From NCBI GenBank assembly GCA_965231125.1, contig OZ246414.1, positions 17,739 to 81,738 of the forward strand: DNA of 64,000 nucleotides, given 5' to 3'. The notes under the pieces are model-generated. The model was not told where the DNA came from. It made no database searches and saw nothing but the letters and a program-made list of their open reading frames with translations. This DNA is from an uncultured Gammaproteobacteria bacterium (lineage in GTDB: Bacteria > Patescibacteriota > Microgenomatia > Woykebacterales > RBG-16-39-9b). How positions within the stretch are numbered: the first letter of the stretch is position 1; the number at the start of each line of letters is the position of its first letter. The position numbers were made by a program, and so were the translations under genes. Positions 2,993 through 57,829 of this stretch are shown piece after piece.

Positions 2993-4051
2993 TTAAGAAT
3001 CTCCTTTCAAAACATACACCGCAGATTTTGTCTTACCCCTCTTCCTCACTAATCGTTTTTCCATCAAAACTTTTAAATCTCGCAAAATTGAGTCATCGGA
3101 AACCATTGGTAACAAACTGCGCCACTCTTTATTGGAAACTTGGCCGAACTCTTGCATATATTCAACCAATTTTAGCTGCCGGTCGTTTAAAGGCAGCTGA
3201 CCCATTTTACTTTTGAGTCGCAGATCGACAGAAAGGCGACGGACTTTATCTTTTATTCTTGCCAGCTCCTCTGCCAAACCTTCAGTAAAATATTCTATCC
3301 AGACAGTTAAATCTCTCTGCCAAATATCTTCAGACTGATTTGATACTTGTTGAAGAACACTGTAGTAACGTGTAGCATCTTTATCGAAATATTCTTCAAT
3401 CGAGAAAAACTTTTTTATATCGTAGCCTTCTTTAAACAAAACAAGGTTCGCAACGGCTCTCGCGACGCGGCCGTTACCATCAACGAAAGGGTGGATTGCT
3501 GCCAGCCCGTAGTGAGTAATCCCCGCTTTTATAACCGGATGGATTTCGTCTTGGGAAAGGCGGTTTAGCCAAAAAAAGAATTCATGGGTTAGACTTGGTA
3601 CTTTATTTTGGTTTGGTGGGACGTAGGACGCTTCTCCGGTTGCGGAGTTTGCCACTTTTACTTGGACTTTTCGATATTTTCCAGACTGATCCTCGAGGAG
3701 GATTTTTTTAGTAGTGAGGCGGTGAATTTCTAGCAAAATGTCTTCTGTTACTAGCTCTTCCCGGATTTTGTCGATGTATTTTAAAACTTCACGGTAGTTT
3801 AAAACTTCTTGGACATCACGGTCCCGAGCGGAAATATTTTTTCCTTCAAGAATCTGGGCCACTTCTTTTTGCTCCAGGGGATTGCCTTCAATATGCGTGC
3901 CGTGATGAACCGTGCGAATAATTGCTTCCTCACGGAATTTCGCTTCGTAGGAAGGAACTAAGGGAGCGTTTTCAATAATTTCTTTGGCGGCTTCGATACG
4001 ACCGATGTTTTTTAAAATCTTGTGAGTTATGGAATATTTTGGTTGAAACAT
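2993..4051 (-). CDS. fic: Fic/DOC family AMP-transferase with C-terminal winged-helix domain
   Basis: Fic motif HPFVDGNGRVARAV is present. An N-terminal inhibitory-helix-like IEGN motif (HGTHIEGN) is also present. The C-terminal ~70 aa looks like a wHTH. Confidence 0.85.
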   Translation of the reverse strand: MFQPKYSITHKILKNIGRIEAAKEIIENAPLVPSYEAKFREEAIIRTVHHGTHIEGNPLEQKEVAQILEGKNISARDRDVQEVLNYREVLKYIDKIREELVTEDILLEIHRLTTKKILLEDQSGKYRKVQVKVANSATGEASYVPPNQNKVPSLTHEFFFWLNRLSQDEIHPVIKAGITHYGLAAIHPFVDGNGRVARAVANLVLFKEGYDIKKFFSIEEYFDKDATRYYSVLQQVSNQSEDIWQRDLTVWIEYFTEGLAEELARIKDKVRRLSVDLRLKSKMGQLPLNDRQLKLVEYMQEFGQVSNKEWRSLLPMVSDDSILRDLKVLMEKRLVRKRGKTKSAVYVLKGDS

Positions 4052-17948: not shown

Positions 17949-19871
17949 CTAACTTTTGACGTCTTTATCGGGAGATGTGGTCTCAACTTTAATTTCTGAC
18001 TCTTCCTTAGGCTCTTCTATTTGCTCTTTTACCTGGTGGAGTTTCTCCCCCCTCGTTACAATTTCTTCAAACTCGGCACCTTCTAAGGTTTCCTTTTTGA
18101 TTAATTCGGCTGCCACAAGATCTAACTTTTCTTTGTTTTCCCGAAGGATTTTTTTGGCTTTATCGAAACATTCATCGATTATTCTTTTAACTTCGTCGTC
18201 TACTTTTGCTGCCAAATGTTCTGAAAGTGGTTTTGGGTCTCCAAGTTCTCGGGCCAACCAAGGGTTCTCTCCTGGAGCGCCCATGGTTAATGGGCCCAAA
18301 GAGCTCATACCGAATTCCGTCACCATTTTTCTGGCAATTTCGGTGGCTCTCGAAATGTCAGAACTTGCCCCAACCGTGAATTCATTAAACTCAATTTCTT
18401 CGGCAGCCCTACCACCAAGAAGCGATGTTATGGTTTCCAAAAGCCTTGTCTTTGTTTCGTTGTAGCGGTCTTGTGAAGGCGGGATAAGGGTATGACCGCC
18501 GGTGCCTCCACGGGCCACAATTGATATCCGGTGAACCGGATCCATGTTAGGAAGCATTTTCGTTACTAAACCGTGCCCGGCTTCATGGTAGGCGGTTATT
18601 TTCTTTTCTTCCTCGGAAGTCATTCTTTTTCTTTCTGGCCCAAGTTGAACTTTGGTAGCAGCTTCTTCCAAATCTTTATTTCCCACCTGTTTTTTACCAT
18701 CTCTTGCGGCTAAAATCGCTGCCTCGTTTAACATGTTCTCCAAGTCGGCTCCAGAAAAACCGACAGTCCGGCGGGCTAGACTTTCAATATCAACACCTGC
18801 CTCCAGTGGTTTATTTTTTGAGTGAATCTTAATAATTGACTTGCGACCTTCAATGTCGGGCAAATCCAATGTAACTCGGCGATCGAAACGCCCTGGGCGC
18901 ACCAGTGCAGGGTCCAACATATCCGGCCGGTTTGTAGCCGCCATAACAATTATATTAATATTCGGCTCAAAGCCATCCATCTCGACTAAAATTTGGTTTA
19001 AAGTCTGTTCCCTCTCGTCGTGACCACCACCAATCCCGAGACCCCGTTGCCGACCTATCGAATCAATTTCATCAATAAATATTATGGCCGGTGAAGATTT
19101 TTTTGCATTATCGAATAAATCTCTTACGCGAGACGCGCCGACTCCCACCAACATTTCCATAAATTCACTGCCGGCAATTGAGAAGAAAGGAACATTGGCT
19201 TCTCCCGCAACTGCCCGAGCTAGAAGTGTCTTACCCACACCAGAAGGCCCAACTAATAAAGCTCCTTTGGGAATCTTTGCTCCAAGCGCGCGATACTTTT
19301 CCGGGCTCTTTAAAAAATCCACCACTTCAGTAAGTTCCCTTTTAGCTTCATCAACACCAGCAACATCAGAAAATGTGGTTTTTGGATTATCGCGGTTGAA
19401 AAGCTTCGCTCGGCTTCTTGAAAAGGAAAGAATGTTATCCCCTGCATTCCTTGCTTGACGAAGAAAAAAGAAGAAAAATCCAGCTAGAAGAAGTATTGGC
19501 AAGAATATATTCAAAAGACCAAATACCGTATCTCTGGTAGAGGTATCTTTGTTGTTGATAGCTACCTTTGCTGGATCTATACCGGAGGCTTTAAGGGTCT
19601 GGGTAAAAACTTCGTTTTGCTGAAGCCGAGATTTTATAGTGCTTCCATCTTTCAATTTTGCCTCAACGTTCACACCATCAATGGCGACAGAATCTACATT
19701 ACCATCTTTTATCTGCGTGAGAATATCGCTTTCTGGCTTTTGTACAGATTGTCCCCGTGGAGAAAGAAAACTAAAGATAAGAAAAGAGGCGACTATGATT
19801 AGAAGAACATAGAAAGGTATGCTTCCAAAAAACCCTTTTTTTGATTTTTGTAATTTTGGTGCTTCAGGCAT
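17949..19871 (-). CDS. ftsH: ATP-dependent zinc metalloprotease FtsH
   Basis: N-terminal TM segments, the AAA Walker A GPSGVGKT, and the zinc motif HEAGHGLV. Confidence 0.95.
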
Positions 19872-19883
19872 AAGTTAGTAATA

Positions 19884-19947
19884 GGATCCTCCGTAACCAA
19901 ATCCAAGTGATTTGGGTACTCTCGGATCCTGCGTCTTTCAGACTAAA
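19884..19947. repeat. dispersed intergenic element R1, copy 1 (modules A TCCGTAACCAAATCCAAGTGATT, B GGGTACTCTCG, C CTGCGTCTTTCAGACTA)
   Basis: Module A is identical over 23 nt to 52926..52948. The module C hairpin GTCT/AGAC is replaced by GTCC/GGAC in copy 2. Confidence 0.5.
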
Positions 19948-19962
19948 GTAAAACGGCCGACT

Positions 19963-51098: not shown

Positions 51099-52123
51099 AG
51101 CATTCTTAAAATCTTACGGACCGGTTTTCTTATCACCTCAACAAATTTGGCCAAAATGTATTGGTTAGATGTTGGGTAGTCAAAAACTGGCTCGTACGAG
51201 ACTCTCTCCCCGCCAAAACTTATTTTAAAAGCCGTAACTCCAGCCCACGGATGGTTTTGAGAAGACCCCTCCGGCGCCACTCCCCAAAAGTCAAAATATT
51301 TAAAGCCTCGCCTTTTACCTTCCAAAATAGTCTTCCAAACTAATAAGTAAGAGGCTCGCATCTTCGATTGAGAGGTGGTTGAAGCAGCGTGTAAATAAGT
51401 CGCTGTATCGCCGTAAAAAATTACTAGTGAGGCGGCTAGTGGCTGCTTATCAAACTCGGCTACAAAAATTTCCATAAGGCCCTCTTTGTTCAAAGTCTCG
51501 TACTGTTTACGATAATAGGCAGAATGAGCGTCTTGGGTGAAGTGATGTCTTTTAGCAGTCTCCGCGAGCAAAGTCTCGAAAATTTTTAAATCTTCCAAGC
51601 CCCCGATCCGCACCTTTACTCCTCTTCTCTCCACCATCCGTACATTATAACGGGTAGAATCATTCATGGCTGAGAGTAATTCTTCTTCGCTTTTTGAAAG
51701 GTCGATAATAGCAGTGCACTCTGGTTGGGTGAAGAGCCGGGTTTTTCTAAAACCTGAGTTAATTAACAGACTGGCCTCATCTTCTGCAATAACACGCGGC
51801 TCGAGCCGCACAAAATCTAAGCTTTGCTCTTTTGCAATCTTAAAAAGATACCTCGTCAATTCTCCGACCACTTCTTTATTCCATTTTTTAAACACCGGTC
51901 CAGCCGGTATATAAAGATAAGAGGCGAACTTCGACTTAACTTGGTAGGCGCTACAAACCCCGATTAATTTATCCGAATCAAAAATTCCGGCCTGGTAGCT
52001 TTTATTTCCGATTTTTTCTTGAAAGCTGCCCCAAGAAAGGCTTTGCAAAAAAGGTGTGTGCGGAACTTCTCTTAGAAATTCGGCTAGAGACCCTGGCCCT
52101 ATTTCTTCAATAGTAAGATTCAT
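51095..52123 (-). CDS. FemAB-family peptidoglycan bridge aminoacyltransferase
   Basis: N-terminal FLQSLSWGSFQEK and the GNAT-like duplicated fold of the FemX/FemAB family. Confidence 0.75.
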   Translation of the reverse strand: MNLTIEEIGPGSLAEFLREVPHTPFLQSLSWGSFQEKIGNKSYQAGIFDSDKLIGVCSAYQVKSKFASYLYIPAGPVFKKWNKEVVGELTRYLFKIAKEQSLDFVRLEPRVIAEDEASLLINSGFRKTRLFTQPECTAIIDLSKSEEELLSAMNDSTRYNVRMVERRGVKVRIGGLEDLKIFETLLAETAKRHHFTQDAHSAYYRKQYETLNKEGLMEIFVAEFDKQPLAASLVIFYGDTATYLHAASTTSQSKMRASYLLVWKTILEGKRRGFKYFDFWGVAPEGSSQNHPWAGVTAFKISFGGERVSYEPVFDYPTSNQYILAKFVEVIRKPVRKILRML

Positions 52124-52226
52124 TAACTCGTTTAAGGTACCTTAAGTGGGAATAAAAATCAATGGATTGAAGATCGCATTTGCAATTCGTCGGCTCTTGT
52201 GGTAAATTGCGCCTACCAAGCCTGGC

Positions 52227-52916
52227 TTGGGAACTTGCCAAATAGAAATTCGGGCAATGAGCAAGCTAACCGAAGTCTTCGAAAAACACGGCAGTTTGAT
52301 TAAGGCCAAAAAAGGCAGGATACTTTTTGGTGTTGACGATCCCCCAACAAAAGTTTATTTAGTTAAAGAAGGTGCCATAAAAATTTACCGTTACACTGAA
52401 GACGGAAAAGAAGTCATGCTTCACATTCACGGGCCCAGAGAGCTTATTACCATCAGTCCAATTTTTAAAGACATGGATCACGTAGTTTATGCCGAGAGTA
52501 TGGTGGAAACCGATCTTTACTGGATTCCAGTTCCTCAATTCCGGGAGATTATAAAAGAAGACCCAGAGATTTTAATGGATCTAGGCCGGGCTCTAGCCAA
52601 CAACTGGGACGAGGTTGAGGAAAAAATTGAAGCCTTTGTCACTCATGATTCTCTTGGACGTCTAGCCTACATAATTCTTCAACTCACTGATAAATACGGG
52701 GCGGGCGAAGCTGGGAAAAAACGACTTCCTTTTCCTCTGACTCACCAAGAACTAGCAAACCTAACGGGGATGTTTCGCGAGACGGTCAGTATTTCCATAC
52801 AAGAACTAAAAAAATCCGGGATTATTTCAATCGACAAACATAATGTAACTGTGGAAGATCGAGACCGTCTCGAAGAGTGCGCCCGGACTGGTCGTAGCGC
52901 CATCGGCAACAACTAG
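52227..52916 (+). CDS. Crp/Fnr-family transcriptional regulator
   Basis: cNMP-binding beta-roll, then the HTH ELANLTGMFRETVSISIQELKK. The actual start may be the internal Met at ~52260. Confidence 0.8.
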   Translation: MGTCQIEIRAMSKLTEVFEKHGSLIKAKKGRILFGVDDPPTKVYLVKEGAIKIYRYTEDGKEVMLHIHGPRELITISPIFKDMDHVVYAESMVETDLYWIPVPQFREIIKEDPEILMDLGRALANNWDEVEEKIEAFVTHDSLGRLAYIILQLTDKYGAGEAGKKRLPFPLTHQELANLTGMFRETVSISIQELKKSGIISIDKHNVTVEDRDRLEECARTGRSAIGNN

Positions 52917-53016
52917 ATAGATCGCTCCGTAACCAAATCCAAGTGATTAAGATCGCTAAAGCGTTCTGCGTCCTTCGGACTAGGGTACTCTCGCGCTCTG
53001 CGACCGCTCTGCGGTC
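52917..53016. repeat. dispersed intergenic element R1, copy 2 (modules A, C, B rearranged relative to copy 1)
   Basis: TCCGTAACCAAATCCAAGTGATT is identical. Hairpin GTCC-ttcg-GGAC replaces GTCT-ttca-AGAC. The 7-nt direct repeat AGATCGC flanks module A. Confidence 0.5.
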
Positions 53017-53529
53017 TATTGTAGCCTAAATTACAATTCGCAAGTAATTTTCCTCACCAACCAAAAGTAATTTCTCTCACTGATATTTGGTCGGAGTTCC
53101 TTTAAATTAAGGATGAAAGGTACTCCGGTCCCTTAGGGGGCTGGAGAAGGAGAAGAGGGTTAGTGAGTTTGCCGATAGGGGGTAGGGACCGGGAGCTGCC
53201 GAGCCCAAAGAGGCAGCACACACAAATCTAAGGGCGGAGGGTAAGTCACCGGGAAAGTACAATGTACCAACTACTCCGTTGTAAACCCGCTAACACCTCT
53301 TCACCAGAGAGACGCCGTCCAACAGGACAGAAAGGAAGACGAAAATTCCATGCTGTCGACTAACAATCGACACAAAGACGAGCCGGCGTATAACAAGACG
53401 CACTCGTCGTAGAGCGGCTGAACTGTTTGTTCCTAGGCAAAGGAACAAATAGTGAAGCCGCTCTCTGTCGTTTTAAGCGAGCCCTCGGAGATTTACTTTA
53501 ACTTGGCTACCAGTTAAAATAATTCCCAA
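53017..53529. ncRNA. GC-rich ORF-free region with dense nested hairpins: candidate structured non-coding RNA, family and strand unresolved
   Basis: No ORF of 60 aa or more in any frame. Helices include GAGCGGCT..TTTGTTCC-N8-GGAACAAA..AGCCGCTC, GACGAG-N20-CTCGTC, GTCGA-N7-TCGAC, GGTCCCT-N57-AGGGACC and GCTGCC-N12-GGCAGC. Confidence 0.3.
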
Positions 53530-53826
53530 GTGAAAATTCAGGAGATCAGAAAACTACTGAAAGAAAGCCAATACTCCGTAAGTACTCACGCTTTTATCGA
53601 ATCCTTTGCAGATGGTTTCAGTATTAAAGACATTCTTAGAGCCCTTAACACAGGCGATATAATTGAAGAGTATAAAGATAGAAACCGACTGCTTATTTAT
53701 GCTAAACTTGGGACAAATTCAATTCACGTGGTAGTTGATTATTCTAGTGTGAACTACCTTTGGATAGTAACAGTTTATAAGCCCGACCCGAAAGAATGGG
53801 TTGATGGTAAAATCAGGAGGCAATGA
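53530..53826 (+). CDS. DUF4258-family putative toxin
   Basis: 98 aa. C-terminal WIVTVYKPDPKEW matches the family. It has a 4-nt ATGA overlap with the downstream zinc-finger gene. Confidence 0.6.
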   Translation: MKIQEIRKLLKESQYSVSTHAFIESFADGFSIKDILRALNTGDIIEEYKDRNRLLIYAKLGTNSIHVVVDYSSVNYLWIVTVYKPDPKEWVDGKIRRQ

Positions 53827-54059
53827 TGACAAAATTTGCATGTCCAAACTGCGGAAGTAAAGTAAATATAAGTGAAACAAACCTTACCCTGAAGAGAGGG
53901 GAATTTTCTGCTGAATTTAAAAATATTCCTGTGCAAAAATGTCCAAACTGCGGAGAAGTTTATATTCCAGGGAAAATAGCTGAATCTTTAAGTAGTTTGG
54001 CTGAAAAAGCTTTAAAAGAAGTTGCAAAAGCTAAAGAAAAACTTGTAGCCTCAGTGTAA
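53823..54059 (+). CDS. YgiT-type (MqsA-like) zinc-finger antitoxin-like protein
   Basis: CPNCG...CPNCGE zinc ribbon followed by a short helical tail. Confidence 0.65.
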   Translation: MMTKFACPNCGSKVNISETNLTLKRGEFSAEFKNIPVQKCPNCGEVYIPGKIAESLSSLAEKALKEVAKAKEKLVASV

Positions 54060-54241
54060 AAGAAAAACGATCCTGAGCATAGTCGAATGGATCGTTTCTC
54101 CTCCTAAGAAAACTACTAAGCTTGTCGAAGTAATTTGCTTAGGGTTTCCAGGTGCAGTGTTTTCCGTTCAGCATTTAGCTTACTTGTACTCTCCGCACCT
54201 GGTTTCACCCGGGCTGTTAGGCCTGGTTGTTGAGTCGAAGT

Positions 54242-54520
54242 TTAGGTCGCCACGGGCTGATGGCGGCGAGCGTACTTGCCAGCGGCCAAGGTAAGGAGCT
54301 CAATTTCCTGCTCCACATCGTTGGGAAGACCGAGAATGGCAGGCACTTTCCGCTCTTTCATAATCGCCAGCTTTACCGCTGATGAGGCGAGCTTCCTGGC
54401 TAAATCGGCGAACTTTTCCGGTGCTGTCCCCTTTCCCTGCTCGGCCTCCACGCGCATCCGAATGCTGTCTTGGACTCGCAGAAAGGCTTCGTCCCACCAT
54501 TGATCATAGTTGACCTGCAT
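54242..54520 (-). CDS. hypothetical protein (92 aa), GC-rich, third gene of a 3-gene small operon
   Basis: Strong RBS AAGGAGGAGAGGAG. Confidence 0.45.
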   Translation of the reverse strand: MQVNYDQWWDEAFLRVQDSIRMRVEAEQGKGTAPEKFADLARKLASSAVKLAIMKERKVPAILGLPNDVEQEIELLTLAAGKYARRHQPVAT

Positions 54521-54547
54521 GGTAACTCCTCTCCTCCTTACGTTGTC

Positions 54548-54778
54548 TCAGCCGACCGTTACTGTTTCCCCGTTCAACATCCGATGGGCTTTGTCGTAGT
54601 TTTCCTCGTTCGTCAGGTTGCCGATGTTTTCTCGAGTGATCTGGAAGCAATTATCTTCCCCGCACTCTGGGCAAAGGACGAGATCTTCTCCCGCAAGCCC
54701 ATCAAAGTCCTCGGGTCTTCCTACGAACCCACACCCACCGTATGTCGTTGAACAGATGAGTACGGTTTGTCCTGGCAT
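54548..54778 (-). CDS. hypothetical zinc-ribbon protein (76 aa), GC-rich
   Basis: RBS AAAGGAGGAG. Cys pairs CSTTYGGCG...CPECGEDNC. Confidence 0.45.
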   Translation of the reverse strand: MPGQTVLICSTTYGGCGFVGRPEDFDGLAGEDLVLCPECGEDNCFQITRENIGNLTNEENYDKAHRMLNGETVTVG

Positions 54779-54803
54779 GACTCCTCCTTTCGAGTTTATC
54801 TTG

Positions 54804-55025
54804 TCAAGCTCGACTTCGTGATCGACGATGATAGCGCGCCAATCTACTCGCTACTTCCCGAGCAGACTCTTCCCCAAGGTTCTTTGCCTCCGGGGAAGTA
54901 CTCATTAGTTGCTTTCGGACCCGCTCCGCTGCATCGGCTTGATCTGTGCTGTTCCTTGCTAGCCTACGAATCCTCGAATCGTTCTCGAACCTGTGGAATA
55001 GTGCCTGTTTGTTGTCAGTCCACAC
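54804..55025 (-). CDS. hypothetical basic protein (73 aa; GTG start), GC-rich
   Basis: RBS AAAGGAAGGG. Confidence 0.4.
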   Translation of the reverse strand: MWTDNKQALFHRFENDSRIRRLARNSTDQADAAERVRKQLMSTSPEAKNLGEESAREVASRLARYHRRSRSRA

Positions 55026-55138
55026 TTGATTCCCTTCCTTTCTTCAGTTAGGTGCGAGTTCAAATGTACAACATACTTATTTTCAAAAACTAACAAATTA
55101 TATCACACTATGGGACTCAAGTCAAGTTCTGGTAGTCG

Positions 55139-57829
55139 TCAGTTGGTTTCGATTACGGGAGCAAATTTGTCTAAGAGGCCGTCGAAGAACTTAAAGAGTA
55201 CCAGCAGCCCTACGCTCACAAAAATTATGTACAGCCAATCCCCGGCGTCAATCGGAGAGAGACCAAATAAATTAGCGAGAAGCGGAGTATAAACTACAAT
55301 CAACTGCAGCGCTACCGAGCTGACAACGGCTACTATTAATAAAATATTATCTCTCCAAGCAATTTTATAGTCGGCTCGGATATTTACCAGACGGATAATT
55401 TCAAAGATAACTATCGCTGTAAAAACGGCCGCTCTTGCTTCATTCACACCTTCCGGCAAGTTTGCAAAGAATAGGGCCAAAATTGCCACGGTAAGAGTGG
55501 TGGCAAAGGCGGCTATTTCCCACCAGACGCGAGAGTTAATAATGTCTCCTTGAAATTTTTTAGGAGAAAATTTTAAAATTCCTTTTTCGGCCGGGTCTAG
55601 CCCCAAAGCAATTGCCGGCAGACCGTCCGTCACCACGTTTATCCACAAAAGCATGACGGCGGTGAGCAGGACATCTTTAAAAATTAACAGTCCGAAGAAG
55701 ACCACTAAAACTTCACCGACATTGCAAGAAAGTAAGTAGTCGACAAATTTACGAATGTTGTCAAAAATTCCTCTTCCTTCCTCAATTGCCGCCACAATGG
55801 TTTTAAATTGATCATCCAGCAAAACTATGTCGGCGGATTCTTTGGCAACGTCTGTACCGGTAATTCCCATCGCGATGCCAATGTCCGCTTTCTTTAAAGC
55901 GGGTGCATCATTCACCCCGTCACCCGTCATGGCCACTAAATGTCCTTTCTTTTTTAAAGCCTCAACAATCTTAAATTTGTGGATGGGGTTTACCCGCGCG
56001 TAAATATTTGTATCTTCAACTCTTTTTGAAAACTCACTCTCCGATAATTTTTCCAGATCATCCCCGGTCAAAAGGGCGCCTTCGACTCCGATTTCGACAG
56101 CGACGGCTTTAGCTGTCGCCGGTTGATCTCCCGTAATCATAATTACCCGAATACCACTGGCCTGGCACTGGGAAATTAAATCTTGAACTTCTTTTCGAGG
56201 AGGGTCCATCATTCCCTGAAGACCAATAAAGGTTAGATCCTCTTCCACTTTGTCCTTTTCTAACTTTTCGATTTCTTTGTAGGCAAAACCCAAAACCCGC
56301 AAAGACGCGGCCGCCATTTTTGAGTTTTCAGATAAAATTTCGCTCTTTTCTTCTTTTGTTAAGGAAACTTCCTTACCATCCTTGATTACCTTAGTGCACG
56401 TATTTAAAACTGCCTCCGGCGCCCCCTTTGTGTAGATAATCTTTTTCCCATCTTCGGAAACAACAACGCTCATCATTTTTCTTTCCGAACTAAACGGCTC
56501 CTCGTGAAGTCTTGGGCCGGATTCTTTAAAGCGGGCTTTATGGGAAGCAACAATTAAAGCGCCCTCGGTAGGGTCGCCAGTAATTTTCCCCTCTTTTGAG
56601 TTAAACGTTGCGTTGTTGCAAGCAAGACCGGCTTTAAGAATTAATGAGAGCTCTTCTGTTTCTACTTTTTTACCGTCTTTAAGAAACGCCCCGTCCAAAT
56701 TGTAGCCCTGGCCGGTAACCGTGTAGGAGGCGCGGTCAACATAAATTTGTCGCACTGTCATCTCGCCGGCAGTTAAAGTGCCGGTTTTATCTGTGCAGAT
56801 TACATCTACGGACCCGAGAGTTTCCATCGAGGCGAGTCTCCGAACCAAGGCGTTGCGGCGAAGCATTCGCTGCGTTCCAAAAGCTAAAGAAACCGTCACC
56901 ACCGCCGGCAAACCCTCCGGAATCGCGGCTACTGCCAAGGCTATCGAAGCTATGAAAGAACTTAGCAGTCTTTGCAGAGGGTCCAGGTGAGCAAAATCCC
57001 GGGCAAAGAAGAAGATAAAGACAAAAACGAAAGCACAAGCAGCCGTGGTGCCATAACCAAGAACTCTACCAAGCTTGTCCAGACGTTTTTGAACCGGGGT
57101 TTTTTCCGGCTTAGTTTCCGCGACAAAAGAGGCAATTTTTCCAATCTCGGTTCTATCTCCGGTAGAAAAAACCACGCCAACCCCCCGACCACTGGCTACC
57201 ACAGTACCAGAGAAAAGAACGTTTTTTTGATCGGCGGTCTGAAGATTTCCAGAAAGTGGGTCTGAAGTTTTTGTAATGGAGTTTGATTCTCCAGTAAGAG
57301 ACGCCTCGTTTGTTTGGAGGTTGTAATCCTCAATTAAGCGAGTATCAGCCGGGACTTTTTCCCCTTCCTCTAAAATTACAATATCTCCCGGGATAAGATT
57401 ACTAACGTCCACCTCTTCCTTTCTACCGTCCCGCAAAACTTTTGCTTTAAACGCTAAAAGTTTTTTTAACTCCTCAATTGCTTTTTCCGCCCGATATTCC
57501 TGGAGAAAACCCAATATCGCGATCAGGGCGACAATTGCCAAAATTAAAGAGCCTTCAATTAAATCCGAGCTTTCTTTTCCACCAAAAAAATAAACAAAGA
57601 AAGTTAGAACAGCCGCAATAAGTAAAATTATTGTTAATATATTTTGGAACTGCCGAATAAAAATCTGAAAGGCGGAAATCTTTTTCTTTTCTGTCAGTTT
57701 GTTTGGGCCGATCTTCCCTAAACGTTTTTCAGCTTCTTGAGGGGACAGGCCTTTTTCGCTTGTTGCCAGTTTAGCAAAAAGTTCGCCGGTACTTAGACTA
57801 TAAATTGGTTTCTCCGCGGCAGACATCAT
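55139..57829 (-). CDS. P-type cation-transporting ATPase (type II, Ca2+-ATPase-like)
   Basis: DKTGTLT phosphorylation motif, TGDQ, and the [20 protein letters not shown] hinge. 896 aa with 10 TM helices. Confidence 0.9.

Follow-up and report, generated by a model that had tools for sequence, protein, structure and literature searches.

The DNA analyzed here, referred to below as the window, is a 64,000-nucleotide (nt) stretch of contig OZ246414.1, from a genome of the Woykebacterales lineage; it corresponds to the JGI metagenome contig Ga0136847_10506507. It carries a crp-like gene for a regulator of the Crp/Fnr family, followed by an interval at 53017-53529 and then by a toxin-antitoxin (TA)-like pair of genes encoding a DUF4258 protein and a zinc-ribbon protein (Table 1). 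A preliminary description had singled out this interval as one candidate large structured RNA. We found that the segment is not one RNA and has three parts, namely, promoter DNA, a structured RNA, and a promoter-like site belonging to the TA pair; the structured-RNA assignment holds for approximately 53115-53475, whereas the first ~95 nt (53017-53110) are better read as operator and promoter DNA. As the preliminary description stated, no open reading frame (ORF) of 60 amino acids (aa) or more is present, the longest one overlapping 52917-53529 in any frame being 52 aa. The segment is also GC-richer than its flanks, a contrast that is clear downstream and modest upstream (GC fraction 0.48 to 0.53 over 53000-53500 and 0.55 in the RNA core, versus 0.35 to 0.39 in the downstream TA genes and 0.39 to 0.48 in the upstream crp-like gene). 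Base pairing exceeds chance as well: the minimum free energy (MFE) of 52917-53529 is -224 kcal/mol on the plus strand, compared with -174 ± 8 kcal/mol for dinucleotide shuffles (z = -6.05), and the same comparison on the minus strand gave z = -5.70.

Among proteins in the PDB, the best relatives of the regulator are Mycobacterium tuberculosis Crp (2e-20) and NtcA (4e-16), and close relatives with 72 to 75% identity are found in metagenome-assembled genomes of Candidatus Woykebacteria and Patescibacteria. A large protein collection contained 34 homologues at E ≤ 1e-30, and the DNA around nine of the crp homologues was examined. At every locus with enough sequence, the crp stop codon is followed by a gap of ~300 to 560 nt without a credible gene, and this gap is homologous to the segment in the window by nhmmer and alignment. 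The homologous noncoding block lies 3' of crp in 11 distinct Woykebacteria-type loci, at Crp identities of 61 to 77%, and the RNA adjoins a crp orthologue in every relative examined, a link which is absent from the preliminary description. The gene further downstream varies (M14 peptidase, GSDH-like, Fer4 oxidoreductase, or DUF6498 in relatives, and the DUF4258/zinc-ribbon pair here); the TA pair stands 3' of the RNA only in this genome (L001 and L003), and ten orthologous loci have other genes. Since the downstream genes differ while crp is constant, the RNA is tied to the regulator and not to the TA pair. The suggestion of a long 5' leader of the DUF4258/YgiT module therefore fails, as ten orthologous loci keep the RNA with other downstream genes and the TA pair has a promoter-like site of its own.

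The 5' part of the segment holds three 16-bp boxes (A, B, and C) with half-sites reading GTAG..TTAC, GTAA..TCAC, and GTAA..TCAC. No other site in the 64 kb scores as high with the box matrix, and the tandem-box pattern gives two overlapping matches, both at this one locus of the window, where 0 are expected by chance. Across the 11 loci there are 26 such palindromes (nGTAn-N6-n(T/C)ACn), one to three per locus, with their information content concentrated at the GTA and TAC positions; nine loci have two or three boxes, with a start-to-start spacing of exactly 23 bp in every case. A -35-like hexamer sits at a constant place, a TAnnnT hexamer is found at the corresponding distance in all 11 loci, and the spacer leading to the -10 box is 17 bp in 9 of them and 18 bp in the other 2. 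Box C lies 22 bp upstream of the TAN3T -10 box, and the composite pattern GTA-N8-YAC-N22-TAN3T matches 53067-53108, in a register that 9/11 loci share and from which the other 2 deviate by 1 bp. The window's hexamer, CTGATA, is below the threshold of a generic sigma-70 scan, as expected for an activator-dependent promoter.

In canonical NtcA-activated class II promoters, GTAN8TAC is centered at about -41.5 and the -10 box has the form TAN3T (PMC3898017). The features expected of an NtcA/CRP class II promoter are found here: a GTA-N8-TAC dimer site with 5-N6-5 geometry, TAN3T 22 bp downstream, and a poor -35 element. The center of box C (53073.5) corresponds to -41.5 only if transcription starts at 53115, the site predicted 7 nt after the -10 box. 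With a geometry equal to that of the canonical NtcA-activated promoters, 53020-53108 is best explained as an activator-type class II (NtcA/CRP-type) promoter. The neighboring regulator presumably binds the boxes, as a Crp/Fnr-family gene adjoins the promoter at every locus and NtcA is among its solved relatives. We also considered the boxes as RNA hairpins and rejected this; their half-sites keep the same sequence, A-C mismatches stay uncompensated, and spacing and phasing are fixed, in line with protein-binding DNA.

The RNA core is built of a 5' hairpin (P1) and a long rod (P2 to P6) with conserved internal loops, in which P2/P3 form a long-range helix closing the rest of the core. RNAalifold on MAFFT alignments recovered P1, P2, and P3, with compensatory changes in 13 of 31 predicted pairs. 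When 12 sequences were aligned under guidance of the model, 84.9% of cells were paired, compared with 79.3% in shuffles and at most 55% with slid partners; in the same 12 sequences, double-change pairs numbered 18 versus 10.6 ± 1.9 in shuffles, and 0 of 500 shuffles reached the observed value. This covariation signal is carried mostly by P1 to P3. Folded singly, ten orthologues give P1 and the rod P2-P3-P4-P5-P6 despite differing P4 to P6 sequences: P4 occurs as CGGGU/ACCCG, UGGGU/ACCCA, or GGAGU/ACUCC; P5 as CCGUG/CACGG, CCGUA/UACGG, GCGCG/CGCGC, UCCGG/CCGGA, or CACG/CGUG; and P6 as GCCC/GGGC, GGGC/GCCC, AGCCA/UGGCU, ACUCC/GGAGU, or CCCACUA/UAGUGGG. All 10 close orthologues carry the loop CAGCA(C/U)AC unchanged, and the shuffle z score of their cores ranges from -3.8 to -8.2 (distant L151, -1.0; L149, -3.1). 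Covariation in relatives, proposed earlier as a check, was thus observed, and the homologous regions contain no conserved long ORF.

Three further observations concern the core. The pyrimidine strand of P2, CCUCUUC, can alternatively pair with a downstream purine-rich near-copy of the P2 5' strand (53297-53316 in the window); this hairpin is predicted in 9/10 close orthologues at -1.7 to -12 kcal/mol and may constitute a structural switch. An extended Shine-Dalgarno (SD)-like sequence, GGAGGUGAU, with no start codon after it, occupies the 3' side of the internal loop between P5 and P4 in 6/10 orthologues (L004, L005, L146, L150, L152 at ~3875-3885, and L159), with variants GGCGGUGAU in L005 and GGAGGUUAU in L159; the window has GGGAAAGUAC instead. 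When complements of the loop GCAGCACAC were sought in the window as possible targets, 3 matches with at most 1 mismatch were found, including the minus-strand image of the loop itself, versus ~6 expected by chance.

A six-helix covariance model of the core region (R1) matched the window once (122.5 bits, E = 3e-33) and each related locus once (114 to 168 bits), and its minus-strand matches reached 16 bits at most. Among 140 unrelated loci it gave one weak match, in L045, which was rejected as a low-complexity repeat (GTGAGTA units in tandem and inverted order, from a high-GC organism). The clade of L149 and L148, with Crp proteins 61 to 62% identical to that of the window, has R1 scores of 13 to 18 bits; its promoter-proximal box retains the 3' half-site only (..TTACA), P1 and the -10 box persist, and L149 also keeps the three-hairpin 3' domain, the L148 sequence ending before that domain. 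A degenerate two-block DNA pattern run against metagenome contigs, a database of a size for which it is too weak, returned at least 120 stretches, none homologous by nhmmer or covariance model; in viral contigs the same pattern gave 15 chance matches and a stricter three-block pattern gave 0.

The structured RNA matches no catalogued family of Rfam 15. The comparison with Rfam suggested by the preliminary description was run with cmscan, and over the whole window at gathering threshold it returned only two tRNAs, both located elsewhere. Lax-filter scans (E ≤ 10) of 52800-55200 (2.4 kb) and 53000-53540 (541 nt) gave only chance fragments of long noncoding RNAs and a terminator-like ctRNA match outside the element, and no RNase P, tmRNA, signal recognition particle (SRP), 6S, intron, OLE, GOLLD, ROOL, HEARO, raiA, or riboswitch model. 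ARAGORN likewise found no tmRNA in 52000-55500, in agreement with the lack of an Rfam match. Bacterial RNase P RNA would be recognized by a covariance-model match together with the P4 pseudoknot and conserved CR-I (GAGGAAAGUCC) and CR-V; neither RNaseP_bact_a/b nor a related model matched at gathering threshold or E ≤ 10. A divergent housekeeping or mobile RNA of a known kind (RNase P, tmRNA, SRP, 6S, a group I/II intron remnant, OLE, GOLLD, ROOL, HEARO, or raiA) would be similar in size (~360 nt) and GC-richness, and the strings GGGAAAGT and ACAGAAAGG had been taken as weakly reminiscent of RNase P. Neither string is conserved, however: orthologues have CGGAGGUG or CAAAUUC at the position of GGGAAAGT, and of ACAGAAAGG only the GAAAGG portion recurs. 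A natural variant, L159, is only ~195 nt long, and with the negative Rfam and ARAGORN results we give this explanation almost no credence; RNase P, tmRNA, SRP, and group II readings are unsupported. The earlier suggestion of an undescribed noncoding RNA class is borne out by a conserved, heavily structured RNA that is absent from Rfam 15 and shows covariation and independent folding in relatives. In the searchable literature, we found no RNA of this kind described for Woykebacteria or the candidate phyla radiation (CPR).

For 53115-53478, the MFE is -155.1 kcal/mol on the plus strand (z = -8.9) and -131.9 kcal/mol on the minus strand (z = -5.2), and G-U cells outnumber A-C cells 44 to 23. From these energies and pairs and from the promoter, we infer that the RNA is transcribed from the plus strand with a start at ~53115; it is predicted to be ~360 nt long and to end after hairpin H3 (UUUU at 53471-53474). 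That the segment makes no functional RNA, being a decaying gene or mobile-element remnant with incidental pairing, or else makes a minus-strand transcript, would fit with both strands folding better than shuffles, with the short minus-strand ORFs that public gene callers place here in relatives, and with the modest strand preference in pair counts. We regard this as very improbable, as the block is positionally conserved down to 61% Crp identity with compensatory changes, its indels are not multiples of three, no long ORF is conserved, the promoter is oriented along the plus strand, and that strand is 23 kcal/mol more stable. Two called genes overlie the RNA in relatives, at 3879-4103 of L146 (minus strand, 74 aa) and at 2433-2816 of L153 (minus strand, 127 aa), as does a mechanical 109-aa ORF at 4846-5175 of L004 (plus strand); none has a family assignment, and all three are probably spurious.

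The 3' domain (53304 to ~53478) is barely alignable in primary sequence across loci, and yet most of the ten loci that have it share the order of purine box, AUG, H1, H2, and long H3. All ten have a purine box of the AAGGA, AGGAG, or AGGGA type 6 to 13 nt upstream of the AUG (UUG in one), and a long terminal hairpin is predicted in each. A hairpin equivalent to H1, of unrelated sequence, is present in most of the 10 orthologues, H1 and H2 being less clear in L150 and L165; shuffle z scores of the domain range from -4.0 to -8.2. The SD, start, and H3 anchors were set by hand, and an automated finder chose other sites in L154, L149, and L005. From the conserved start, the frame is open for 17 to 27 codons in 8/10 loci and for 45 to 46 codons in the other two; in those eight, it ends -3 to +11 nt from the H3 base. 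Of the 20 stops in the two alternative frames, three come within 11 nt of that base, none is in the -3 to +11 interval, and most lie more than 20 nt away on either side. The peptide varies, but start, length, and stop position are kept, a pattern indicative of selection on translation or on an open frame and not on a protein product; translation of the micro-ORF is suggested by its sequence. Were the transcript mainly an mRNA for a ~20-residue micropeptide, with the core as a long stabilizing or regulatory 5' untranslated region, one could account for the conserved SD-like box and for a frame that is open in 10/10 loci where other frames close early. We find this improbable: the peptides are nearly unalignable, the closest pair has no synonymous excess, conservation and covariation are strongest in the untranslated core, H1 and H2 within the ORF keep structure and not sequence, and the L159 group carries the core without the ORF. 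Because L159 keeps the core and lacks the 3' domain, the core is the essential part.

The same features bear on the main rival explanation, a cis-acting sensor or attenuator in which the core (riboswitch-like or protein-binding) would gate translation of a leader micro-ORF, and a ribosome at the stop would melt the H3 terminator and allow read-through into co-oriented downstream genes. An SD, AUG, and stop conserved in position around an unconserved peptide are the hallmark of a regulatory leader ORF, the stop is placed -3 to +11 nt from the H3 base in 8/10 loci, the downstream gene is co-oriented in 11/11, a U-rich stretch follows H3 in the window, L004, and L152, and the alternative pairing of the P2 strand CCUCUUC offers a possible switch. 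As a candidate Rho-independent terminator, H3 has a strong stem, with UUUU beginning 7 nt after it, and received no call in a generic scan; downstream of H3, U-richness varies among orthologues, and in several loci the U-tract is absent or distant. The genes that would be controlled are mutually unrelated (TA pair, M14 peptidase, GSDH-like, Fer4 oxidoreductase, and DUF6498), and a consistent gene association is lacking among the examined loci; these genes have their own promoter-like sequences, mostly within ~10 nt of the start codon and in one case ~22 nt away (read by eye in relatives; the window's site comes from a scan). The L159 group, in addition, has the core without the ORF, H1, H2, or H3. 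On balance, we hold an attenuator to be unlikely.

The locus is probably a two-gene regulator-RNA cassette specific to one branch of the CPR (Candidatus Woykebacteria together with its close relatives) and composed of the Crp/Fnr gene, a class II promoter, and the ~360-nt RNA; this reading builds on the observed architecture and its conservation, on a secondary structure supported by covariation, and on the linkage of RNA and regulator gene. The promoter directly 3' of the regulator gene is the regulator's presumed target, and activation by this adjacent regulator is what the sequence suggests. An effector-bound regulator dimer at about -41.5 would recruit RNA polymerase, the last of the two or three tandem GTA-N8-TAC dimer sites standing in for a proper -35 box, and the RNA so made would be the regulator's post-transcriptional output. 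It is possibly a dual-function RNA, with a structured core and a translated micro-ORF. Rather doubtful is the reading that the core represents a new sensing or catalytic RNA class, for example, a riboswitch-like receptor for the signal of the Crp-like regulator, with the P2 switch and the micro-ORF/H3 unit providing translation-coupled antitermination.

Several points weigh against the cassette reading. At the promoter, the upstream boxes would be centered near -64.5 and -87.5, away from the usual class I positions; their 23-bp phasing is unaccounted for; and the regulator's recognition helix, RETVSI, seems nearer to the CRP helix (RETVGR) than to that of NtcA. Independent sequences number only ~10, all of one narrow lineage, and the most distant clade is weakly recognized by R1 (L151, 24.6 bits; L149, 13.3 bits). 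Within the core, P4 to P6 are not alignable by MAFFT, RNAalifold gives 0 pairs in that interior, and P6 is misregistered in the model-guided alignment, with only 39% paired, so the P4 to P6 register rests on per-sequence folds and their reading by eye. The start site, the 3' end, and the strand are all predictions, and the strand preference in pair counts is modest (84.9% versus 80.4%). As for the 3' domain, two of 10 loci have frames of 45 to 46 codons running through H3, and the L159 group is without the entire domain, though it keeps promoter and core. Purifying selection on the micropeptide was not found, the peptides being unalignable across loci, and L146 and L150 differ in the peptide frame by ~7 nonsynonymous and 3 synonymous changes, read by eye.

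Table 1. Coordinates of features at the crp-RNA locus, in window positions.
Feature	Position	Strand	Remarks
Crp/Fnr-family regulator gene	52257-52916	+	219 aa; cNMP-binding domain and HTH_Crp_2 (Pfam)
Operator box A	53020-53035		TGTAGCCTAAATTACA; GTA-N8-TAC palindrome; highest box-matrix score in the 64-kb window
Operator box B	53043-53058		AGTAATTTTCCTCACC; 23 bp after box A
Operator box C	53066-53081		AGTAATTTCTCTCACT; promoter-proximal, overlaps -35 region
-35-like hexamer	53080-53085	+	CTGATA; weak
-10 box	53103-53108	+	TAAATT (TAN3T)
Conserved RNA core	53114-53303	+	190 nt; predicted start ~53115
P1 hairpin	53123-53132 with 53137-53146		10 bp
P2	53152-53158 with 53297-53303		
P3	53160-53168 with 53286-53294		
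P4	53179-53183 with 53273-53277		
P5	53189-53192 with 53248-53251		
P6	53203-53206 with 53232-53235		
Terminal-loop motif of rod	53213-53221	+	GCAGCACAC; loop closed by P6
SD-like sequence	53330-53336	+	GAAAGGA
Micro-ORF (putative)	53350-53412	+	20 codons, MLSTNNRHKDEPAYNKTHSS, then stop; UAG overlaps H3 base
Hairpin H1	53355-53371	+	GUCGA/UCGAC; GTCGA-N7-TCGAC of the preliminary description
Hairpin H2	53377-53408	+	GACGAG...CUCGUC; GACGAG-N20-CTCGTC of the preliminary description
Long hairpin H3	53411-53464	+	Arms 53411-53434 and 53441-53464 (24 nt, 88% complementary); nested stem of the preliminary description; UUUU 53471-53474; candidate terminator/3' end
CCGGTCCCT/AGGGACCGG helix	53125-53133 with 53184-53192		
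GCTGCC...GGCAGC helix	53195-53200 with 53212-53217		
Promoter-like site of DUF4258/zinc-ribbon pair	53492-53520	+	TTTACT-17-TAAAAT, sigma-70-like; outside RNA

Every helix listed in the preliminary description was found in the sequence, three of them as H1, H2, and H3 (Table 1). The GCTGCC/GGCAGC helix is present with a spacer of 11 nt and not the 12 given, and neither it nor the GGTCCCT/AGGGACC helix is conserved in relatives: the former occupies the conserved loop motif, and the latter is specific to the window and competes with the covarying hairpin P1.

Several neighboring elements were noted as well. The TA-like pair (53530-54059) consists of two genes with overlapping stop and start codons, the first for a 98-aa DUF4258 protein (E = 3e-13) and the second for a zinc-ribbon protein of 78 aa (DUF7479, E = 7e-7). 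Directly after it, at 54056-54099 on the minus strand, a hairpin followed by a T-run matched ctRNA_p42d weakly (22 bits, E = 0.11, against a gathering score of 50) and is most likely a bidirectional terminator. A second GC-rich stretch at 54100-55100 (0.51 to 0.57), flanked by the TA pair on one side and by two P-type ATPase genes on the other, holds three minus-strand ORFs of 92, 76 (with two CxxC pairs), and 73 aa, without a Pfam family above the curated cutoff; it is not beside the RNA in relatives and may be an inserted island. An ~85-nt intergenic element occurs twice in the window, between the crp stop codon and box A (52905-52990) and between trpS and ftsH (19865-19950), the two copies being identical over a 24-nt core (CTCCGTAACCAAATCCAAGTGATT; 52925-52948 and 19889-19912) and each being flanked by short direct repeats (GATCGC...GATCGC and GGATCC...GGATCC). 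Absent from the orthologous loci of relatives and coinciding with a Logan assembly break, it looks like a small lineage-specific insertion, similar to miniature inverted-repeat transposable elements or repetitive extragenic palindromes.

With the class II promoters of cyanobacterial NtcA, the locus shares a CRP-family dimer site (GTA-N8-TAC), here with a predicted center at about -41.5, a TAN3T -10 box, and no good -35 element (PMC3898017). NsiR4 is an NtcA-dependent small RNA (PMC9196836, PMC7281752), so that a regulatory RNA is the product there, and the presumed product here is likewise a regulatory RNA and not a protein. Unlike the NtcA systems, the host is a nonphotosynthetic CPR bacterium, two or three tandem sites recur strictly every 23 bp, the genes for the regulator and for the RNA are physically coupled, and the RNA is ~360 nt long and ornate. 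NsiR4 itself measures 60 to 70 nt. The regulator best matches mycobacterial Crp among solved structures and may not be an orthologue of NtcA. In enterobacteria, CyaR is activated and Spot 42 repressed by CRP, and both are short, Hfq-dependent, seed-pairing RNAs that are not adjacent to crp. The proposed arrangement resembles them in using a small RNA as the post-transcriptional arm of a Crp-family regulon; both are in Rfam, however, and neither matches the RNA described here.

SgrS/SgrT, RNAIII/hld, and SR1/SR1P are dual-function RNAs that combine a structured regulatory RNA with a short translated frame, as the present RNA putatively does; its peptide, in contrast, is not conserved beyond start, length, and stop position, which is more like a regulatory leader ORF. 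Like OLE, GOLLD, ROOL, raiA, and HEARO, it is GC-rich, ORF-free, and multihelical and was found through conservation and covariation. It differs from them in its smaller size (a hairpin, a long rod, and three hairpins), in the lack of a model match, in its much narrower distribution, and in its coupling to a transcription factor gene.

Bacteria of the CPR/Patescibacteria are ultra-small and uncultured, with genomes of ~1 Mb and very few transcription factors, and to our knowledge almost nothing is known of their gene regulation or regulatory RNAs. The locus provides a compact module of one regulator gene, an operator array, and one ornate RNA, an arrangement which recurs in all Woykebacteria-type loci retrieved, and with it a defined candidate DNA target for a CPR Crp-family protein. 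It extends the GTA-N8-TAC/TAN3T promoter grammar, familiar chiefly through NtcA of cyanobacteria, to a nonphotosynthetic CPR lineage, and it adds a candidate structured RNA class that is absent from Rfam and that public gene callers cover with spurious short ORFs. If the coupling of micro-ORF and terminator is real, it would be an unusual wiring of activator, RNA structure, and translation; a core that itself senses the regulator's signal, if confirmed, would turn the module into a feed-forward sensor, part protein and part RNA, that only CPR bacteria possess.

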